The notes under the pieces: generated by a model
What the model was told of the DNA's origin: nothing
Database searches by the model: none
What the model saw: the letters and a program-made list of their open reading frames with translations, nothing else
DNA from: a virus
Lineage: Duplodnaviria > Caudoviricetes
IMG/VR virus record: IMGVR_UViG_3300005522_000013
Location: 1-26,092 of that record
Strand: one strand, 5' to 3'
DNA: 26,092 nt
Position numbers and translations under genes: made by a program
In this document: positions 1,947 through 11,511 of the stretch, piece after piece
Position numbering within the stretch: the stretch's first letter is position 1
Layout: the number at the start of each line of letters is the position of its first letter

Positions 1947-2351
1947 ATGAGTCAAGTTGATACTGAAAAATACGTTGAGTTTGTTAATGCTGTTACCAGC
2001 GATGAATCAAAAAGATATGATGCATTTGATAAGAGAGTTTACGAATTGGAATCTAATATTCCTGTTGAACGTCTCTTGACCGCAGCTCTTGGTATTTGTG
2101 CTGAGGGTGGTGAGTTTACTGAGGTAGTCAAGAAGATTATTTTTCAAGGTAAACCACTCAATGAAGAAAATATCTTTCATATGAAACGTGAGTTGGGAGA
2201 CATTATGTGGTATGTTGCTCAGGCATGTATGGCATTAGATACAAATTTCAATGAAATTATTGAAATGAATGTAGAAAAATTAAAGGCTAGATATCCTGGT
2301 GGAGAATTTGATGTAAAACATTCCGAAGTCCGAAAGGAAGGTGACGTATAA
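1947..2351 (+). CDS. mazG: MazG-like NTP pyrophosphohydrolase
   Basis: AEGGEFTEVVKK and RELGDIMWY motifs; usual position after gp41 in cyanomyoviruses. Confidence 0.93.
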   Translation: MSQVDTEKYVEFVNAVTSDESKRYDAFDKRVYELESNIPVERLLTAALGICAEGGEFTEVVKKIIFQGKPLNEENIFHMKRELGDIMWYVAQACMALDTNFNEIIEMNVEKLKARYPGGEFDVKHSEVRKEGDV

Positions 2352-3289
2352 TGCATGATTCTTCAAAACTATTGACTGGATTAAAATTTAAACAGTCTCT
2401 AAGATATGGTGAGAATCCACAACAGAATGCAACGTGGTGTGTGTACCCAGATCACGGTTTATCATCAGCAAATCAATTACAAGGTAAGGAATTAAGTTAT
2501 AATAATTTAATAGATTTAGACGCAGCAGTAGCAACAGTAAAGGAATTTCCTGATGAACCTGCTGTTGTTGTAATTAAACATACTAATCCATGTGGTGTTG
2601 CTATAGGAGAGACTATAGATTCTGCATTAACTAGAGCATTAGATTCTGATAGGGTTAGTTGTTTTGGTGGAATTATTGCTTTAAATAGAGAAGTAAATAA
2701 GGAGTGTGCTGATGAGTTAACAGGTGCTTTTTATGAATGTATCGTTGCTCCATCATTTAGTGATGAAGCGAAGAAAGTACTTTCTACTAAAAAGAACTTG
2801 AGATTACTTGAGTTGGATATTGATAATATGCAACTAAAACCATATAATGTTAGGAGTATTCTTGGTGGAGTATTGGTTCAAGAAAAGGACAATGAACCAG
2901 TTAATATTAATGATTGGAAAGTAGTTAGTGAAAGAGCTCCAACAGTTCAAGAATTGATTGACCTTACATTTGCTTGGAAGGTTTGTCGTCATGTTCGTTC
3001 TAACGCAATTTTAGTTGCTAGTAATGGAGCAACATTAGGTGTTGGAGCAGGACAAATGAATCGTGTGGGTTCAGCAAACATTGCATTGAATTCAGCAGAT
3101 GTTAATGGTGCTGCATTAGCAAGTGATGGGTTCTTCCCATTTGGTGACACTGTAAGATTAGCACATGAATATGGTATCAAGGCAGTCATTCAACCAGGTG
3201 GAAGTATCAAAGATCAAGAATCTATTGATGCATGTAATGAGTTAGATATGGCTATGATATTTACAGGTAAACGACATTTTTTACATTAA
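2351..3289 (+). CDS. purH: AICAR transformylase (C-terminal half of PurH as a stand-alone gene)
   Basis: LRYGENPQQ, GKELSYNN, KHTNPCG, GVGAGQMNR, ASDGFFPF, IQPGGSIKD, and the PurH C-terminus TGKRHFLH. Confidence 0.95.
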   Translation: MHDSSKLLTGLKFKQSLRYGENPQQNATWCVYPDHGLSSANQLQGKELSYNNLIDLDAAVATVKEFPDEPAVVVIKHTNPCGVAIGETIDSALTRALDSDRVSCFGGIIALNREVNKECADELTGAFYECIVAPSFSDEAKKVLSTKKNLRLLELDIDNMQLKPYNVRSILGGVLVQEKDNEPVNINDWKVVSERAPTVQELIDLTFAWKVCRHVRSNAILVASNGATLGVGAGQMNRVGSANIALNSADVNGAALASDGFFPFGDTVRLAHEYGIKAVIQPGGSIKDQESIDACNELDMAMIFTGKRHFLH

Positions 3290-3925
3290 ATGATTATGAG
3301 TTACGCATTATTAAGTGTTTCAAATAAAGATGGTATTGTAGATTTTGCAGAAGAATTAGTTCGTGCAGGATACACCCTTATTTCAAGTGGTGGAACCCAT
3401 GCAGTAATTCATGCAGAAGGTATACCCGTAATGAAGGTATCTGAATATACTGGTTCACCAGAAATTCTTGAAGGTAGAGTAAAGACACTACATCCAAAGA
3501 TTCATGGTGGTATTCTTGCAAAGCGTGGTCATCCTTTACATGATCTAGATCGTAATGCAAATGGTATTGGACTCATTGATATTGTTGCAGTTAATCTGTA
3601 TCCATTCAAAGAAACTGTTTCTAAACCAGATGTAACCTTTGAAGAAGCAATAGAAAATATTGATATTGGTGGTCCTAGTATGGTAAGATCAGCAGCAAAG
3701 AATCATAAAGATGTTGCTGTATTGACTAATCCTAATCAGTATGGAATTTTTCTTGATGTATTGAAGGGCAATACATCTTCTACTACAATGGACGAATTAA
3801 AAACTCAATTTGCATTAGAAGCATTCAAACATACTGCTGAGTATGATGCGACAATTAGCGCATGGATGCAGGAAAATAATATCTATGAAGAGACAAAAAG
3901 TTCATACGGTGGAACCCTTACCTAG
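3290..3925 (+). CDS. purH: IMP cyclohydrolase (N-terminal MGS-like half of PurH as a stand-alone gene); start may be ATG 3296
   Basis: [64 protein letters not shown]. Confidence 0.95.
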
Positions 3926-3974
3926 AACTTTCTCAACTTGAAAAACAAAACAACCTACAGAGTAAATTAAAAAA

Positions 3975-4169
3975 ATGATTAATATTGAAGTTGATGTGAG
4001 AACCTCTATTGCAATTAGACAAGTTCTATTTCGTGAACAGGATCTTTATACATATGATCCTACCTGTTGTCCTCAACGAATCGTTGATATTCGGAGTGTT
4101 ATCCAAAACCTTGACGAACAGATTGAAAGTGAGTTAAAATCTATTGAAGAAGAAAATACTGAAGAATGA
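3975..4169 (+). CDS. small hypothetical cyanophage protein
   Basis: 64-aa ATG ORF filling the gap; its stop overlaps the next start (ATGA). Confidence 0.7.
   Translation: MINIEVDVRTSIAIRQVLFREQDLYTYDPTCCPQRIVDIRSVIQNLDEQIESELKSIEEENTEE
4111..4140 (+). promoter_or_regulatory. possible sigma70-type promoter for the cmoA-like gene
   Basis: TTGACG (4111-4116), 18 nt spacer, TAAAAT (4135-4140), inside the upstream ORF. Confidence 0.4.
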
Positions 4170-4861
4170 CATACGACTTTTCTTTTGCACATTCACCAGA
4201 AGGTTTTGATAATCATATTGATAGTTCTATCCGCGGATATTCAAACCTTCTAGAAGATACTGTATCATTTTCCCGATACTTTGTGGAAGATGATACTAAA
4301 GTCGTTGATGTTGGTTGCTCAACTGGTAAACTCACTAAGATGATTATTGGTAACAATCCCAATCGTCAGAGGGCCCAATATGTTGGTGTAGAACTTGCTG
4401 GTAGTTTTTATGATGATCTGACAGAACGTTATACGGAAATTCGTAAGGATTATTGTTGGGCTCTTTTGGAATGGGTTCGGGGTAACATTACAAACTATGA
4501 GTTTAGGAACTGTTCTCTAGTAACTTCACTATTCACTCTACAGTTTATGCCAAAGACCACTAGACAAGAGACGATCAATAAGATCTATAATGGTATTAAT
4601 GAAGGTGGTGCATTTATCTTTGCAGAGAAGTTGATGTGTGAGAATGCATTCTTTCAAGAACTTCTTACTTTCAATCATTATGACTACAAGAGAAAGTCCT
4701 TCTCTTCTGAAGAGATCATGGATAAGGAGCAACAACTCCGTGATATGTTAAAACCTAATACATGGAAAGAACTTTATGGTATGATTATGTCAGCTGGTTT
4801 CAAAGACTGTCAGATCTTCTGGAGAAACCATCAGTTCGTCGGAGTCATCGCAATCAAATAA
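4166..4861 (+). CDS. cmoA: CmoA-like carboxy-S-adenosyl-L-methionine synthase (class I SAM-fold)
   Basis: Collinear CmoA motifs: FDNHIDSSIRGYSNL, VDVGCSTG, FTLQFM, GGAFIFAEK, HYDYKR...EI..K, AGF...F.G.IAIK. Confidence 0.85.
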   Translation: MTYDFSFAHSPEGFDNHIDSSIRGYSNLLEDTVSFSRYFVEDDTKVVDVGCSTGKLTKMIIGNNPNRQRAQYVGVELAGSFYDDLTERYTEIRKDYCWALLEWVRGNITNYEFRNCSLVTSLFTLQFMPKTTRQETINKIYNGINEGGAFIFAEKLMCENAFFQELLTFNHYDYKRKSFSSEEIMDKEQQLRDMLKPNTWKELYGMIMSAGFKDCQIFWRNHQFVGVIAIK

Positions 4862-4870
4862 ACTGGCACA

Positions 4871-4894
4871 AGGGACCTAGACAGGTCCCTTTTT
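4871..4894 (+). terminator. intrinsic terminator-like hairpin after cmoA
   Basis: AGGGACCT-AGAC-AGGTCCCT, perfect 8-bp stem followed by a T run. Confidence 0.7.
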
Positions 4895-4905
4895 AGTGTT
4901 ATATT
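4878..4905 (+). promoter_or_regulatory. sigma70-type promoter overlapping the hairpin
   Basis: TAGACA (4878-4883) and extended -10 TG-T-TATATT (4897-4905). Confidence 0.55.
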
Positions 4906-4997
4906 ATATTCATGGTTCTCAAGGGAACCTGCAGATCCTATCTGAATCCTTCGGGACATGGGGATCTGGTTTTCACGTAAACCCTATCCATTTAATT

Positions 4998-5945
4998 ATG
5001 ACTATTTTTACTTATCCCGGTGTCAAACTCCAAGGACAAGTCCCCCTTCTCCTTGACGCATTTGACCAAGACAGTTTGCAGAATGCATCCCGAGCCGGTG
5101 ATACTGATCCCCTGAATGTCAAAAAGATTGAACAATCTTTCCAGACCCGTGGGGTACTTGAAGAGTGTCCTCTTCCTACTGCAATCAAAGGACCCAATGG
5201 TCGTCCTCTTCTAGTCGATGGTGCACACCGTTGGACTGCTGCACTCAATCTTGGTTGGAAAGAACTGAAGTTCAACTACTATGTTCCTAGTGATCCTAGT
5301 ACGTTTGATTACGAACACTTCCTCATGTCCAAGGGACTTGAGAGTAATGATCATGTTCCTGCCAAAGCTATCTCTTCCGCAGACTTTGAACGTGCAGTAG
5401 CAGTATATGTGGATAACAATATCGACACTTTTGAAACTGAGGCTGACGTTTTGAATTTTGTAAGCCAATTCAGTATTTCTTCTATTGTCCAAAAGACAAA
5501 GAACAATATTGCAAAACGTGTCTTCCTTAAGAAGGTCAACACATCTCAAATCAAACAGTTTGATAAGAGAAATGTTGAAACTACGTTCCGTAATCTTCTT
5601 AAAGGTTGTGAAGTTGAAACTGTAGAGAACGTAAACTCTGGCACTCAGACTACTCGTTCGACTATGGATCCTGTGCTTCGTGCAATCAAACATTACGAAA
5701 GGCATGGAGAACCTATTCGTTATGTTGTCCTGACCAAGAACTGTGAATCCATGAATGATGTTGTTACAACTCGTTCAGAGATTGTCAAAACTTGGGAAAG
5801 GAACTATAATATGCTTCGTGCAGTCATTTACGAAGTGGACGATCAAGAATCTGGTTATCAAATCGAATACCCATTTGAGATCGTAGGTGCAATCCCACAG
5901 GTAAATGGTCAAGAGTCAGTTGATAAACTTGCCGATATCGTATGA
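4998..5945 (+). CDS. ParB/sulfiredoxin-like N-terminal domain protein with unknown C-terminal region
   Basis: ParB/Srx signature P...LLVDGAHRWTAA preceded by 'IEQSFQTRG'; ATG 4998 preferred over GTG 4896, which lies in the promoter. Confidence 0.7.
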   Translation: MTIFTYPGVKLQGQVPLLLDAFDQDSLQNASRAGDTDPLNVKKIEQSFQTRGVLEECPLPTAIKGPNGRPLLVDGAHRWTAALNLGWKELKFNYYVPSDPSTFDYEHFLMSKGLESNDHVPAKAISSADFERAVAVYVDNNIDTFETEADVLNFVSQFSISSIVQKTKNNIAKRVFLKKVNTSQIKQFDKRNVETTFRNLLKGCEVETVENVNSGTQTTRSTMDPVLRAIKHYERHGEPIRYVVLTKNCESMNDVVTTRSEIVKTWERNYNMLRAVIYEVDDQESGYQIEYPFEIVGAIPQVNGQESVDKLADIV

Positions 5946-6757
5946 TTGATAAACTTCTGGTAGATACTATCAGAAATGAGGTCCCCACGGATACCGTGGG
6001 GATTTTGTTATCTGGAGGTGTAGACAGTCTGAGTCTGGGTTTTGCTGCCCATCGTCTTGGTAAAAAAATTACTGCATATACTTTTCATCTGGAGGGTGAC
6101 AAGTCTTATGATGCAAACAAAGCTGAAGAAGTTAGTAAAGAATTTGGATGGGAATGTGAGACAGTTGTTGTTCCCACCACAAATCTTAGAGAGGACTTTC
6201 TTCGTCTTGTAAAAAATTATGATTGTAGAAAGAAGACTCACTTTGAGTGTACTTTTCCTTTCCTCTACGTTTTTCCCCACATCAAAGAATCATATCTCCT
6301 CAGTGGTATTGGTGCCGATGGATACTATGGTGTGAGTAAGAAAGCAATCCTTCACTTCAAAGAACCAAAAGAGAAGTTTGATCAATTCAGACGTAACTAT
6401 TTCATGCCACATAATGTGACTGGATTCCGACAAATCGAACAGTTGGCTAATGAGAAAGGTGTTAGACTTGTACATCCCTACATCTATCATGATGAAGTAA
6501 GAGATTATTTCTTCAAGTATGATTGGTTTGAATTGAATCAACCCAAACAGAAACAGGTGGTGAGAGATGCATTTAAAGAAGAATTTGATAGAGTCACCAG
6601 TGTCAAAGATCATATCAATCTTCAACTTGGTTCTAACATTGATCACTTGTTTGAAAAATTACTAGATGATGAGGTGCTAAATAATCGTAAAAGGAAGAGA
6701 GTCATGGACTTGGCTTCCGACTACGCATCTACTGGACAATCGATACTACCCCTATGA
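5942..6757 (+). CDS. asparagine-synthetase-like ATP-dependent amide ligase lacking a glutaminase domain (CmoY-like)
   Basis: PP-loop LLSGGVDS, LLSGIGADGYYG, HPY, KQVVRDAF; only 271 aa with no N-terminal Ntn domain; ATGA overlaps at both ends. Confidence 0.85.
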   Translation: MIDKLLVDTIRNEVPTDTVGILLSGGVDSLSLGFAAHRLGKKITAYTFHLEGDKSYDANKAEEVSKEFGWECETVVVPTTNLREDFLRLVKNYDCRKKTHFECTFPFLYVFPHIKESYLLSGIGADGYYGVSKKAILHFKEPKEKFDQFRRNYFMPHNVTGFRQIEQLANEKGVRLVHPYIYHDEVRDYFFKYDWFELNQPKQKQVVRDAFKEEFDRVTSVKDHINLQLGSNIDHLFEKLLDDEVLNNRKRKRVMDLASDYASTGQSILPL

Positions 6758-7872
6758 AACTTCCCTACAAACTACAAGATGTCTATGACGGTGAGGCACA
6801 AGCCAAGTTCACTGTAATCTCTACATTCGCTGGTGGAGGTGGCTCCTCCACTGGATATCGTCTTGCTGGTGGTAAGATTCTGTGTATTAATGAGTTCGTT
6901 GAAGAAGCAAGGAACACATACTCAGAGAACTATCCTTCAACAAAGATTATCCCTGATGATATTAAACAACTGACAGGTAAAGACTTCCTGGAAGCCACTG
7001 GTCTCAAACAAGGAGAACTGGATATCCTTGATGGTTCACCACCTTGTTCTGCATTCTCTGTTGCAGGTTCTATGTGTCGTGGTGAGGGTTCTAAACACTC
7101 TGATGGGTGGGGTAAGACTAAGACTTATTCAGATGGTAAGAAGGTAGAGAATATTGAAGACTTGTTCTTTGAATATATTCGTGTTGCCAATGAAATCAGA
7201 CCCAAGGTTATCGTTGCTGAGAATGTCAAGGGTCTGACTATTGGTGAGGCTAAGACTTATTATGCTATGATTACCAATGCCTTTGAGGAGATTGGTTACC
7301 TTGTCACATCAAAAGTGATGAAGTCATCTCATTATGGTGTTGGTCAGGCAAGAGAAAGACTCATCTTCATTGCAGTTCGTGAAGATATTGCTGACATGGT
7401 AGGAATCAATATACTGACTGTATCCTCTCTTTTTCCACCTACATTATCCAAAGATACTACGATTCGTGATATTATTGATGGTGTTGAGAATGATCCTGAG
7501 AACATCAAAGGTCTCACAGAACACATGTTGAAGAGTGGTATCTATAAGAAAGTTGTCTCTAAGATGCCTAAGGATCCTAAAAAGATTCTTTCTGGTATGA
7601 ATTATCATGAGAAGGGTCATTGTTTTAATACTAAGAGGGCATCATTCTATAAACCATCTCCCACACTAACTGCAAGTGGTGGTTTAATTCATTGGAACGA
7701 GGATAGAGTATTGTCTGTTCCAGAACTGAAACGTATTCAATCTCTTCCTGATGACTTTGTTTTGACTGGTTCTCATTCTCAACAGACAGAAAGAGTGGGT
7801 AGAATGGTTCCGCCTTTGATGATGAAAGCAATCGCAGAAAACATCTATAAAGAAGTTCTTTCTAAAGTCTAA
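6754..7872 (+). CDS. C5-cytosine DNA methyltransferase family protein, probable carboxymethyltransferase (CmoX-like)
   Basis: Motif I FAGGGG, IV GSPPC, VI ENV, VIII QARER, IX R.LS..E..RIQSLP, motif X GRMV instead of GN(A/S)V. Confidence 0.9.
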   Translation: MKLPYKLQDVYDGEAQAKFTVISTFAGGGGSSTGYRLAGGKILCINEFVEEARNTYSENYPSTKIIPDDIKQLTGKDFLEATGLKQGELDILDGSPPCSAFSVAGSMCRGEGSKHSDGWGKTKTYSDGKKVENIEDLFFEYIRVANEIRPKVIVAENVKGLTIGEAKTYYAMITNAFEEIGYLVTSKVMKSSHYGVGQARERLIFIAVREDIADMVGINILTVSSLFPPTLSKDTTIRDIIDGVENDPENIKGLTEHMLKSGIYKKVVSKMPKDPKKILSGMNYHEKGHCFNTKRASFYKPSPTLTASGGLIHWNEDRVLSVPELKRIQSLPDDFVLTGSHSQQTERVGRMVPPLMMKAIAENIYKEVLSKV

Positions 7873-7875
7873 TAT

Positions 7876-7883
7876 CATAAATA
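7876..7883 (+). promoter_or_regulatory. T4-type late promoter
   Basis: CATAAATA, intergenic, about 30 nt upstream of ATG 7915. Confidence 0.65.
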
Positions 7884-7914
7884 ATGTTAATAAGAGTTGT
7901 TAGAATTAAAAACC

Positions 7915-8886
7915 ATGTCGGATATGAGTAATCTGTACAGAGCTTATTCAGCTGTACACAGTTCTGAAATTAGTGATCAATTGAACGAGTCTAGAGATAT
8001 CATCTCTGATATGGAATTTAATCAGATGAATTCTGCGGACCTTCAAGAGGTCGCAGAAGAAATCATTGAAGAGATGTTCGTTAATACTCTTACTGTTAAA
8101 CAATCGAAAGAAATTGTCGAACAGATTATTAATGAAGCACTTAATGGTGAACAGTCGGAACTTAGATCTAGTAAAGTTGAGTATATTAAAGAGTCATTTG
8201 ATAGAGCCTTTTATAATTGTCACACTGAAGAGAGATTTACTACGTATAGACATTCAAAGAAAGTTCAAGAGAATTTTCACAACATCTCTAATGAAGAACT
8301 TGGAAATAAGAGACTCCATGAGGCACTGATTGCTCAAGAGAAAAAGACAATCAAAGAGGGTATTCTTTCTTTGATTGAGAAGAAAACAAAAGATTCTTCT
8401 TACCTTGAGACCAATATAAAGAATATAGAAGAGAATAACGAGAAGGCCCGTAAGGGTATGGAGAATATGGGTACTACTATGAAGAGCCCTCAACTAGAAG
8501 AGTTCTCTCAAATCAGACAAGATTGGAGTAGTGCTTATTCTTCCATGTATGAGGAGAAGGGTGGTAAGTGTGAGGAGTGTGGTAAAGAGAATTGTAAAGA
8601 ACATGTTGAGCTCAAGAAAGAAGTCCAACAGGTTGATGAAATTTTGGCACCTGTAGTCGCAGGAACCGTTGGTGCAGTAACTGGTAAGAAAGGTAGAAAG
8701 GTCAAGAAGGCAATTGGTGCAGGTTCTGGTGCTGCTGTTGGTGGAGCGTTGGGTGGCCCACTTGGTGCTGTTGCTGGGGGTCTCGCTGGTGGAGCAATTT
8801 CAGATGAAGTTCAACATAAAGGAACAACATTCTCTGAAACTGAATTGAAAAAGTTTGAAGATATTGCAAATTCCTGGGTAGACTAA
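7915..8886 (+). CDS. hypothetical late protein, probably virion-associated, with C-terminal glycine zipper
   Basis: Long E/K-rich ORF behind a late promoter; GAAVGGALGGPLGAVAGGLAGG near the C-terminus. Confidence 0.75.
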   Translation: MSDMSNLYRAYSAVHSSEISDQLNESRDIISDMEFNQMNSADLQEVAEEIIEEMFVNTLTVKQSKEIVEQIINEALNGEQSELRSSKVEYIKESFDRAFYNCHTEERFTTYRHSKKVQENFHNISNEELGNKRLHEALIAQEKKTIKEGILSLIEKKTKDSSYLETNIKNIEENNEKARKGMENMGTTMKSPQLEEFSQIRQDWSSAYSSMYEEKGGKCEECGKENCKEHVELKKEVQQVDEILAPVVAGTVGAVTGKKGRKVKKAIGAGSGAAVGGALGGPLGAVAGGLAGGAISDEVQHKGTTFSETELKKFEDIANSWVD

Positions 8887-8901: not shown

Positions 8902-11511
8902 ATGAAAGACGTATTTAAATATCTGAAGGGCTCCAGGGAACTCCTGGAGTCCACAACCTCTGAGAGGGCGCAGGAACTTGGTTATAAATATCGTGCACGT
9001 GGTGTCTGGGGAGATCCTAGAACTGGTAAAAGGTATAGAACTGATGGTCTTCGTTTCGTAGAAATAGACGAACCTACTCCTCAAGAGAAAGAACCCAAGA
9101 CACAAGAACCTAAAACTCTTCGTAACTTTAGAAAAGACGCACCTAAACCAGAACAACCACAACAGAAGCCTTCTGTAGCTGACCAATATGCCAGGAATCT
9201 TCCTGGTGGTCCTGATGAGAGTGCATTTGAATCAGGTGATATTGAAGTAATTGCCCAGATGCTTGAGCGTGATATTTATGGTATTGTCACTCCTGAAAAA
9301 CATAAAGAATACTTGGTAAGAGCTCAACAAGAACTTGACATTTACAATCAAGAAAAACAACAAATAGCTGCCCAAGCCGAAGCAGAAGCAGCGGCAGAAT
9401 TAGGATCTGAACAGGAAGCTGAAGCTCAGGCTAAGGCAGATGAACATAATAAGTTGGTAAAAGATGCAGGTGAACCAGAGAAGACAGAATCAGATTTCAG
9501 GACTATTGATAAAGTTGTAGTTGATAATCTTGAAGAAAATGGTCAAAACTTTGATGGATCGATAACTCAGGGTGACGTAGATATTGCCACAGAAGAATCT
9601 ATACAAAGAGTTACTGATATCTCAAATACTGATGTAGAAGATCAAAGATTTGATGACGGAAGAGAGTCACAAAAAGAATTCCTTGACTACTACTCTAAAG
9701 ACTCTGAGAATAGAAAAGGTCTAGACACCTTGAATTCAATTGCCAAAACCGATGAGAAGGTTGAGCAATTGATGGATGCTATTAATAATGGAGACTTTCT
9801 TCAGGAAATTAATATCACACAGAAAGATAAAAGATCTGTAAGTCAAATACTTTTGGATGCTGGAATTGATGTCAATGATCAAGCTCAATTGGATTGCTTC
9901 AAAAATGCTCACAAAGAAATCAATAACTTTGTTGATGGTAAAGGTAGATTCAAGACAAGTGAATCTAGTGAATTGACAGGTAGTAACCTGGGACACTACG
10001 AGGCTAGACACATTGAGAAGAGAACTGATCTCTCAACTATGGATGCTGCGGGAGTACAAACTAAAGCATTTAACTTGAGGAATGATGCTGAATCTAATAT
10101 GCAATGTGTCACCCCTACGATTACTGATGCTGTTTATAACTTATTACCAACACCAGCTAGAAGTCAGTTGGCAAAGAGTGGAGCACCAGGAGAGAAAAAC
10201 CATTATGATCCTACAAAGAAAAATAGAAAAGGAACAGCAAATCCTATCAGAGGATCAGCAGCATTACATATGTGGGTGATACAAGATGGTAGAGACGCAT
10301 ATGCTGCAGCAGGTAGGAGAAGATCCCCTGGTGAATTCCAAGTAGAACATATTGTTCCATTGAAATCTGGTGGTAAAGATGAGATTGAAAACTTCTCTAT
10401 GCTCTTAAGAAGAGTGAATGAGCCCAGAGCAGACCTAAGCTTTGAAAAATTCTTGGCACAAGCAGTGACTAAAGCAGCTGATCTCATGGCTGACTTAAGT
10501 AATCCAAAGACCAGGGCTAAGTTTGAGAAGAAATATAGATCATCCAGATACAATGATAAGCTTGCACCCTCTGTAGGTGGATCAGTACAATCAATTATTG
10601 GTGATGATTTAATGAAGAATGTAAATCAAGATCTTGACGATAACTTAAGTGAGAAGGCTGCAGCCAAATTGAAAATTAAACCAGAGGAATTCAAAAATTA
10701 TCAACAAGAGGTTCAGGGTTTCCTTGATAAGAATGGATTGGATAGTGATACGAACATTAAAGATATGACGGCCAATCAAATGAATAGTATCTTTGATATA
10801 ATGACTGAAAATCTTGGTATAGATAAGTCCAAGATGATGGAATATATGGGTAGAAATGTCATCAACAATTATGATGTTGGTGGTAGAACAGTTATCAATA
10901 AAGAAACTGGAGAGTTGGAAAGAGGAAGAAGTGGAACCCAATCTTCTTCTGGTAACCTTACTACCATGCAAAACTCTATCATCGCAGATGATAGTTTTGA
11001 ACCTGAACAGAAGAAGGAAATGCTAAAAACAATTAATGATAACCACCAACAATTTAAGAAAGCTAGAAATACCTACATTGATAATCCAAATGATCCCCAA
11101 GCATTTGAAGAATATGTAGGTAGTATGTTAAATAATATTAGTTATCTTCAAGGAGATGGTGACTCACCACTCAGTCCAGATAGAAAATATGATACAAGAC
11201 TGACTCCTTCCGAGAAGAACACCCTTGACGACGACGTATTAAAGGGTATAATAGGTATGACGACAACTGATAAATCATCCCTCGCCAAAGATAAAGATGT
11301 GTTCTCTCCCGGCAGACAGAAAGAGATGACTCCCAAGGCCAAAGAACATGTAAAGGCTCTTCGTAAGAAGATGATTGATGCATACTCAAGGACAAGTGGT
11401 TTGACTCCAGAACAAATTAAAAACCCCGATAGTCTTAAGGCAGGTGATAAGAAAAAACTTCTTACATTGACTAACGCTTTAGAAAACTTCGACGCAGGAC
11501 TTGGATTATGA
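8902..11511 (+). CDS. large probable internal virion protein with central HNH endonuclease domain
   Basis: SD GGAG before ATG; QDGRDAY...VEHIVPLKSGGKDEIENF.ML...VN..R HNH motif at about 10285-10440. Confidence 0.8.
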   Translation: MKDVFKYLKGSRELLESTTSERAQELGYKYRARGVWGDPRTGKRYRTDGLRFVEIDEPTPQEKEPKTQEPKTLRNFRKDAPKPEQPQQKPSVADQYARNLPGGPDESAFESGDIEVIAQMLERDIYGIVTPEKHKEYLVRAQQELDIYNQEKQQIAAQAEAEAAAELGSEQEAEAQAKADEHNKLVKDAGEPEKTESDFRTIDKVVVDNLEENGQNFDGSITQGDVDIATEESIQRVTDISNTDVEDQRFDDGRESQKEFLDYYSKDSENRKGLDTLNSIAKTDEKVEQLMDAINNGDFLQEINITQKDKRSVSQILLDAGIDVNDQAQLDCFKNAHKEINNFVDGKGRFKTSESSELTGSNLGHYEARHIEKRTDLSTMDAAGVQTKAFNLRNDAESNMQCVTPTITDAVYNLLPTPARSQLAKSGAPGEKNHYDPTKKNRKGTANPIRGSAALHMWVIQDGRDAYAAAGRRRSPGEFQVEHIVPLKSGGKDEIENFSMLLRRVNEPRADLSFEKFLAQAVTKAADLMADLSNPKTRAKFEKKYRSSRYNDKLAPSVGGSVQSIIGDDLMKNVNQDLDDNLSEKAAAKLKIKPEEFKNYQQEVQGFLDKNGLDSDTNIKDMTANQMNSIFDIMTENLGIDKSKMMEYMGRNVINNYDVGGRTVINKETGELERGRSGTQSSSGNLTTMQNSIIADDSFEPEQKKEMLKTINDNHQQFKKARNTYIDNPNDPQAFEEYVGSMLNNISYLQGDGDSPLSPDRKYDTRLTPSEKNTLDDDVLKGIIGMTTTDKSSLAKDKDVFSPGRQKEMTPKAKEHVKALRKKMIDAYSRTSGLTPEQIKNPDSLKAGDKKKLLTLTNALENFDAGLGL

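Follow-up and report, generated by a model that had tools for sequence, protein, structure and literature searches.

Gene layout and the carboxy-SAM synthase

The window, by which we mean the whole stretch of DNA analysed here (26,092 nt, 36 ORFs), contains a cluster of genes encoding a predicted carboxymethylcytosine pathway, interrupted by a leader and an additional gene. Its features are as follows:

4166..4861, + strand: cmoA, carboxy-SAM synthase, 231 aa, assigned by orthology to S-B43 SpCmoA and by CmoA structures
4862..4997, + strand: putative leader of the inserted block, with a hairpin and a sigma-70-like promoter match
4998..5945, + strand: extra gene, 315 aa, with a predicted ParB/sulfiredoxin-fold N-terminal domain (profile, Foldseek and structure-model matches)
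5942..6757, + strand: cmoY, ATP-dependent 5cxmC:amine (likely glycine) amide ligase, 271 aa, assigned by orthology to SpCmoY
6754..7872, + strand: cmoX, DNA cytosine-C5 carboxymethyltransferase, 372 aa, assigned by orthology to SpCmoX (PDB 8YF3)
4862..6753, + strand: exchangeable ligase slot, from the cmoA stop to the cmoX start, delimited by comparison with loci L036 and L086 and with run X5

Yang et al. (Nat Commun 2025, PMC12783734) reported the CmoA-CmoY-CmoX system of Synechococcus phage S-B43 (GenBank MN018232; PDB 8YF3), demonstrating each reaction, the GC target, the use of glycine and the HhaI resistance of 5cxmC DNA, with about 75% of GC sites modified in S-B43 DNA. The core pathway was thus already published in December 2025 (PMC12783734), and the window encodes 80–90% identical orthologues of it. 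An initial annotation, made from the sequence alone, had named this link correctly, and its proposed chemistry, from carboxy-SAM (Cx-SAM) through 5-carboxymethylcytosine to an amide, is supported and corresponds to the S-B43 pathway (PMC12783734). It had also described clustered CmoA-like, Asn-synthetase-like and C5 methyltransferase genes, the last two coupled by ATGA; we recovered all three ORFs with their domain matches, as well as the ATGA overlap of cmoY and cmoX at 6754–6757. The extra gene, ending at 5945, overlaps cmoY through ATGA too.

E. coli CmoA is an enzyme of the tRNA cmo5U pathway, in which it works with CmoB. The product of 4166–4861 resembles it in fold and sequence (structures 4GEK and 4IWN, E about 3e-26), but its partner in the window is a DNA C5 transferase, and a scan of the 36 ORFs against Pfam and PHROGs returned no CmoB match, in line with the initial annotation. 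The phage protein also scores 115.1 bits against the bacterial CmoA equivalog TIGR00740, below the cut-off of 193.3, and is not filed under that family. With SpCmoA of S-B43 it shares 87.9% identity over a gap-free alignment, and L144I is its single deviation at columns at least 95% conserved among 53 homologues. Glu188 aligns with an Arg of E. coli CmoA that binds the carboxyl group, and active SpCmoA has the same Glu. Orthology to an active enzyme and linkage to cmoX, with no cmoB in the window's ORFs, are the features expected of a phage CmoA.

A ParB-fold gene upstream of cmoY

The extra gene of the initial annotation encodes, on the evidence of its structure model, a ParB-fold protein. 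ATG 4998 is its best start; GTG 4896 was rejected because it lies inside a promoter-like element and homologues begin at the ATG. The leader combines a GC-rich hairpin and T-run (4870–4891) with an overlapping sigma-70-like promoter match (4878–4905), and a similar leader occurs in L004–L007 and L009 and, without any passenger ORF, in L098–L101. Promoter matches across 3800–8200 number 19 against 12.8 ± 3.8 expected, which is weak evidence, and a 9-base leader motif shows no enrichment across the window (3 occurrences, 4.1 expected).

The predicted protein comprises a ParB/sulfiredoxin-fold N-terminal domain, a helical middle and an alpha/beta C-terminal domain. It matches sulfiredoxin, SbnI and ParB profiles, its model (pLDDT 82.6) superposes on PadC (Z 11.0, rmsd 2.1, 94 aligned) and pNOB8 ParB (Z 10.3), and its top Foldseek matches are Noc, KorB and ParB, placing the modelled N-terminal domain in the ParB/sulfiredoxin superfamily. 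Pfam PF02195 (ParB_N, the ParBc of PMC12783734) gave no match to it up to E 1, and one distant relative, at 15.1 bits, fell short of the 26.3 cut-off. A Pfam LRAT match (E 0.15) and P0021, a repeat/STAND protein, as a relative were both rejected as chance. For locating distant relatives in viral contigs, an alignment of 22 sequences yielded no suitable pattern, the P0010 query found none and the A5 query found one 40-residue match. The window and L004 copies of the gene are separated by 46 synonymous codon differences and 16 non-synonymous ones.

S-B43 has modified DNA yet lacks the gene, as do 17 of 21 CmoY loci; the gene thus looks dispensable. In three loci a GmrSD_N-HNH-like gene takes its place, carriers of the ParB-like gene are not monophyletic on the cmoY tree (AU p 1e-5), and distant relatives turn up in S-CAM3 and S-MS29, neither of which gave a CmoA or CmoY match. 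Being optional, repeatedly gained or lost and sometimes replaced, it is most likely a passenger that the chemistry would not require. The close family is nevertheless seen solely directly upstream of cmoY, which still leaves room for a functional link.

Such a link could take the form of a true CmoY or CmoX accessory, a clamp or activator raising modification; this would be compatible with our main reading of the cassette, and we consider it unlikely. The gene lies directly upstream of cmoY in 4/4 viral and 9/9 metagenome loci (several redundant, one nearly identical to the window), is ATGA-coupled to it, and occurs in none of 52 loci with an AsnB-type ligase. R32, G52, R78 and N117 are invariant in 22 ParB-like sequences, like the nucleotide-binding residues of ParB, a correspondence with MxParB (PMC13229309) drawn from spacing; ParBc genes are present in 1660 CmoX contigs, and one S-MS29 relative adjoins an N4/N6 methylase. 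However, other relatives sit among tRNAs or small hypothetical genes, SpCmoX and SpCmoY are active without a ParB-like protein (PMC12783734), and the absences, the HNH-like substitutions and the looseness from any one cmoY lineage all count against an accessory.

A selfish or competitive role is more doubtful: the protein might, for instance, be a nuclease that gives the linked cmoY allele an advantage in mixed infections and in this way drive slot exchange. Insertion at a constant site, with a promoter-like leader of its own and in alternation with the HNH-like gene, would fit, as would the match between window and L004, which is 89–97% over the initial 700 bases of cmoY and ~82% in cmoA and cmoX. 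No nuclease signature was found, however: the C-terminal domain alone has no Atlas match and no Foldseek match at E 0.001 or better, its likeness to Shedu nuclease (Z 4.5, against a best VIA Z of 4.7) was rejected as background level, and alignment A4 has no outstanding acidic catalytic motif.

A probable glycine ligase and a probably GC-directed transferase

CmoY is a stand-alone Asn-synthetase ATP-binding domain (Asn_synthase, E 4e-14) that carries an SGGVDS loop and adjoins cmoX. Pfam detects no GATase in it, bearing out the earlier description of a ligase without a glutaminase domain. The one match among solved sequences, 4MKM, was judged spurious, leaving no meaningful match. In viral contigs all three genes stand together in 21 of 29 CmoY loci; in five others (51–57% identical) cmoA and cmoX were not seen in the DNA available. 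Comparison with characterised enzymes, proposed in the initial annotation, gives 79.7% identity to SpCmoY, with no gaps and 55 of 271 positions differing, and 90.1% to SpCmoX, again gap-free. An amino acid or amine other than glycine, joined by this CmoY within the same pathway, is improbable at such gap-free identity of 80%: the differences from SpCmoY fall mostly in variable stretches, and all 78 columns that reach 95% conservation or more across 30 homologues are unaltered.

The product of 6754–7872 is a C5 DNA methylase by Pfam (E 3e-53) and matches the CmoX structure 8YF3 at E 8e-227. All nine residues named in PMC12783734 are identical to SpCmoX: F25, E47, F48 and D69, which bind Cx-SAM, and the SPPC motif (S95-P96-P97-C98) with Arg350 that characterises CmoX, at the same positions. 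Residues 284–335 show no difference from S-B43, and every deviation at highly conserved columns of CmoA, CmoY and CmoX (1/108, 0/78 and 2/157) exchanges Leu for Ile or Val. GC occurs 52 times at codon junctions, where synonymous shuffles give 144, a depletion to 0.36; the figures are 0.59, 0.50 and 0.22 in other cmoX phages and 0.82 and 0.88 in two cyanophages without CmoA matches, a small comparison of three against two phages over unmatched regions, and CG is depleted too (0.57). The identity over residues 284–335 and the shortage of GC bear on the GC target indirectly. An ordinary GC methyltransferase making 5mC, its neighbours incidental, would agree with the Pfam and TIGR00675 matches but is highly improbable given Arg350, the 90% identity to SpCmoX, whose wild type takes Cx-SAM as sole cofactor (PMC12783734), and the linkage of cmoX to cmoA in relatives.

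With a probability of roughly 0.88, we interpret the cassette as the orthologue of S-B43 CmoA-CmoY-CmoX in a T4-like, probably cyanobacterial phage, producing 5-glycylcarboxymethylcytosine at GC sites and carrying the ParB-like gene as an optional passenger. CmoA would likely convert SAM and host prephenate to carboxy-SAM; CmoX would likely use this to carboxymethylate the cytosine of GC sites at C5; and CmoY would likely use ATP to join glycine to the carboxymethyl, giving 5-glycylcarboxymethylcytosine as the likely product, which would protect the phage genome against restriction nucleases. What we observe ourselves is which genes are present and in what order, how far their residues are conserved, the shortage of GC and the exchange at the slot, and from these we infer that the S-B43 reactions, GC target and glycine hold in the window phage too. 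By orthology, the target and the amine that the initial annotation had left open are very likely GC and glycine.

Slot exchange and relation to known systems

Of 392 cmoX loci, the 80 best have an AsnB-type glutamine ligase in the slot in 52 cases, CmoY in 21 and no ligase in 5, the slot being cut off in 2; the window's closest relatives in this set have the AsnB-type ligase, and the cmoX tree shows at least eight changes of ligase type. L036 and L086 agree with the window at 94–95% as far as 4861 and then from 6754 onwards, a 465-aa AsnB-type gene occupying the interval, and one contig of run X5 links 4853 to 6754 via 1401 different letters. Run X3 covers the flanks and hardly the slot, with no contig spanning it, so no evidence was drawn from it. 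The AsnB-type gene has an N-terminal Met-Cys and GATase and Asn_synthase domains, keeps an open reading frame in 41/41 full-length copies and shares only 23% identity with CmoY over the synthetase domain; its best annotated match is Streptomyces phage TurkishDelight gene 124 (40.6%). Most likely, the leader, ParB-like gene and cmoY recombined in as one block, displacing an AsnB-type ligase.

A different or missing ligase in near-identical phages would mean a different mark. The slot may act as a chemical allele switch, a reading we put forward tentatively, at somewhat less than even odds, in which near-identical marine phages, even in one sample, alternate between glycine, glutamine-dependent and no ligase and so carry glycyl-, carbamoyl- or bare carboxymethyl-cytosine at the same GC sites; hosts sensing one form would keep all three circulating, and ParB-fold passengers would travel with the glycine allele or help it. 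The exchange supplies matched natural pairs (~95% identical flanks, different ligase) for the role of the amide beyond the carboxymethyl, as well as many close variants of the glutamine-dependent type. While the cassette by itself is one more orthologue of a published pathway and carries small weight, slot exchange is a useful extra; relative to the text of PMC12783734 as available to us, it and the extra gene are additions, and four contig ids of this analysis do not appear in the supplements available.

The glutamine-amidotransferase (AsnB-like) ligase cluster of PMC12783734 (A0A7T0Q3R0) is a predicted ammonia user, uncharacterised, for which its authors did not achieve soluble expression. 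The slot gene of the window's closest relatives is likened to it by type, not by cluster membership, and the window itself has CmoY instead.

ParB activates some phage T-dioxygenases (O'Toole et al., PNAS 2026, PMC13229309). The window protein shares its ParB N-terminal fold with those activators, PadC and pNOB8 ParB, and as with the activators its gene adjoins a DNA-modifying enzyme and the nucleotide-binding residues are apparently kept; the likeness to 5mYOX ParBs (PMC13229309) is one of fold and gene neighbourhood rather than sequence comparison. In contrast to those systems, the S-B43 partner enzymes work without a ParB-like protein, the window gene is optional and its C-terminal domain gave fold matches of background level only. 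The gene is a candidate for asking whether ParB-fold proteins assist a carboxymethylcytosine pathway.

The S-B43 system itself, among the closest known, shares with the window all three genes, identically ordered and of equal length (231/271/372 aa), with 87.9/79.7/90.1% identity, and has mazG and a small ORF upstream as in the window. However, cmoA and cmoY overlap in S-B43, whereas 1080 bases, comprising the hairpin/promoter-like leader and the ParB-fold gene, separate them here, and the window's flanks are nearer to phages with the AsnB-type ligase than to S-B43.

The CmoA–CmoY–CmoX cassette and its phage

Judged from its sequence, the cassette in the window is very probably (roughly 88%) another member of the CmoA–CmoY–CmoX pathway of Synechococcus phage S-B43. 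According to the text of Yang et al. (2025, PMC12783734), S-B43 CmoA converts SAM and prephenate to carboxy-SAM (Cx-SAM), the only cofactor accepted by CmoX, which uses Cys98 and Arg350 to carboxymethylate C5 of cytosine in GC sites, and CmoY ligates glycine in an ATP-driven reaction. The same text reports HhaI resistance for carboxymethylated DNA and the presence of 5-glycylcarboxymethylcytosine at ~75% of GC sites in virion DNA. Searches of Pfam, NCBIfam and PDB bore out the identities and positions of the three genes proposed in the initial annotation, including a ligase without a glutaminase domain:

4166–4861, + strand: cmoA, CmoA-like methyltransferase fold
5942–6757, + strand: cmoY, asparagine-synthetase domain without glutaminase
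6754–7872, + strand: cmoX, C5 DNA methylase

The ATGA overlap claimed for the last two genes was also seen. The initial annotation read the cluster correctly as a phage DNA hypermodification cassette and proposed comparison with the characterised CmoX and CmoY; the pathway is already published (PMC12783734, text), and the window proteins align without gaps to the S-B43 enzymes at 87.9% (SpCmoA), 79.7% (SpCmoY) and 90.1% (SpCmoX) identity. That annotation also staked its reading on co-occurrence across phages, and the genes do travel together: among 29 loci on viral contigs that encode a CmoY relative, 21 hold all three, in the window's order (14) or as cmoY–cmoX–cmoA (7). Contig ends interrupt three loci, and five distant ones (L029–L033, 51–57%) show cmoY alone in the available DNA. 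Two of these five relatives, when aligned, are changed close to the motif that follows the ATP-binding region.

The cassette's neighbours (UvsX, DnaB-like helicase, MazG, primase, NrdAB and a 2OG-Fe oxygenase) and the best matches in Synechococcus phages lead us to regard the window as part of a T4-like phage, probably with a cyanobacterial host. The genome sequence analysed consists of this single contig.

Elsewhere in the window, PurH is divided between two neighbouring genes whose order is reversed: the transformylase (C-terminal) half occupies 2351–3289, and the cyclohydrolase/MGS half follows at 3290–3925. In the close relatives L036 and L086, the second gene persists at 98%, and the first lacks its middle part. 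In loci L018–L020, the DnaB-like helicase match is broken near residue 190 by a 400–1100-base insertion, possibly an intron or intein. An 869-aa ORF (8902–11511) has a weak HNH match at residues 475–518 only.

An exchangeable ligase slot

We surveyed the slot between the cmoA stop and the cmoX start (4862–6753 in the window) in the best 80 of 392 cmoX loci; in each of the 80, the best cmoX copy retains both SPPC and the motif-X Arg. An AsnB-type gene lies directly upstream of cmoX in 52; the slot holds cmoY in 21, holds no ligase in five and is cut off in two. The AsnB-type ligase (463–465 aa) has an N-terminal Met-Cys and GATase and synthetase domains; the text of PMC12783734 describes another cluster of ligases, which contain a glutaminase domain and whose expression failed there. 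The cultured phages RN05-S (L002) and S-CRM01 (L003) carry no ligase between cmoA and cmoX, and their DNA is predicted to contain bare carboxymethylcytosine, unless a ligase is encoded elsewhere.

The closest relatives among these 80 loci, L036 and L086, show 94–95% matches to the window up to 4861 and again from 6754, and carry an AsnB-type ligase in the slot, as does L035 (96% match from 6754). On a tree of cmoX DNA sequences with 49 rows (two cut loci and same-label near-duplicates left out), the window is nested in an AsnB group with 100/100 support, and ligase type switches 10 times, at least eight of them forced by well-supported branches, a count that is approximate because cmoX itself recombines. 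Moreover, in sequencing run X5, one contig (depth 9.25) links 4853 to 6754 via 1401 different letters, matching the AsnB allele by size alone, and contigs of depth 2.5–4.3 span most of the ParB–cmoY allele; two slot alleles therefore appear to coexist in one sample. Repeated exchange of ligase type in one slot among near-identical phages is one remaining interest; it is not mentioned in the consulted text of PMC12783734 or the literature searched, and subscription papers or figures may hold it.

In seven of the best 80 of 392 loci (L070–L075, L103), two cmoX copies lie in tandem. The second copy, ~66–70% identical to the window's, retains the motif-X Arg wherever the pattern matched. Its recognition region is different, and its target sequence may be another one.

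A ParB-like gene upstream of cmoY

The extra gene begins with the ATG at 4998, preceded by a leader with a hairpin and a promoter-like element; it overlaps cmoY by ATGA and shows mainly synonymous codon changes. A profile of 22 sequences, together with an AlphaFold model, points to a ParB/sulfiredoxin fold at residues 10–117; structure searches of the model assigned no fold to the C-terminal domain. Predicted structures from other cyanophages match the protein along its whole length. The text of PMC12783734 mentions ParBc genes of unknown function in 1660 contigs.

The close family lies directly upstream of cmoY in 4/4 viral and 9/9 metagenome loci; several of these loci are redundant, and L108 shares 99.97% identity with the window. 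Among the best 80 of 392 cmoX loci, it occurs in none of the 52 AsnB loci, and 17 of the 21 CmoY loci lack a ParB-like gene. Three of those 17 have a GmrSD_N–HNH-like gene in its place (weak Pfam matches), and four (L098–L101) keep the leader alone, just downstream of the cmoA stop, where cmoY follows it immediately and no passenger ORF is present. The four ParB-like carriers do not form one clade on a 20-row cmoY tree (AU p 1e-5), and distant relatives in S-CAM3 and S-MS29 lie among small genes, among tRNAs or beside an N4/N6 methylase. Because this distribution is patchy, the gene fits best as an optional passenger with a ParB fold, another remaining interest. A real if rather improbable rival is that its product is an accessory of the modification pathway, for which phage ParB proteins that can activate DNA-modifying dioxygenases set a precedent (PMC13229309, text).

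The GmrSD_N–HNH-like gene (443–448 aa; L009 2589–3920, L008, L051) occupies the same site between cmoA and cmoY, and the same hairpin leader precedes it.

GC depletion and comparison with the S-B43 enzymes

Across codon junctions of 15 long window ORFs, GC occurs 52 times vs 144 in synonymous-codon shuffles (ratio 0.36). The ratio is 0.59, 0.50 and 0.22 in cmoX-bearing stretches of S-B43, S-CRM01 and RN05-S, vs 0.82 and 0.88 in S-CAM3 and S-MS29, which have no CmoA match, a comparison of three phages with a small control of two over unmatched regions. CG is also low in the window (0.57), and equally low in one control. The rarity of GC at these window junctions is an independent sign of a GC-directed system.

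Columns conserved at ≥95% are all kept in the window CmoY (30 distinct homologues); the only departures are L144I in CmoA (53 homologues) and L218I and L372V in CmoX (73 homologues). The window CmoA scores below the bacterial equivalog cut-off and has Glu188 where E. coli CmoA has an Arg that we take to be carboxyl-binding. SpCmoA, which is active, carries the same Glu188, and all 53 CmoA homologues share both Glu188 and Arg192. Furthermore, F25, E47, F48, D69, SPPC 95–98 and R350 of SpCmoX are identical in the window CmoX, and residues 284–335 show zero differences between the two enzymes.
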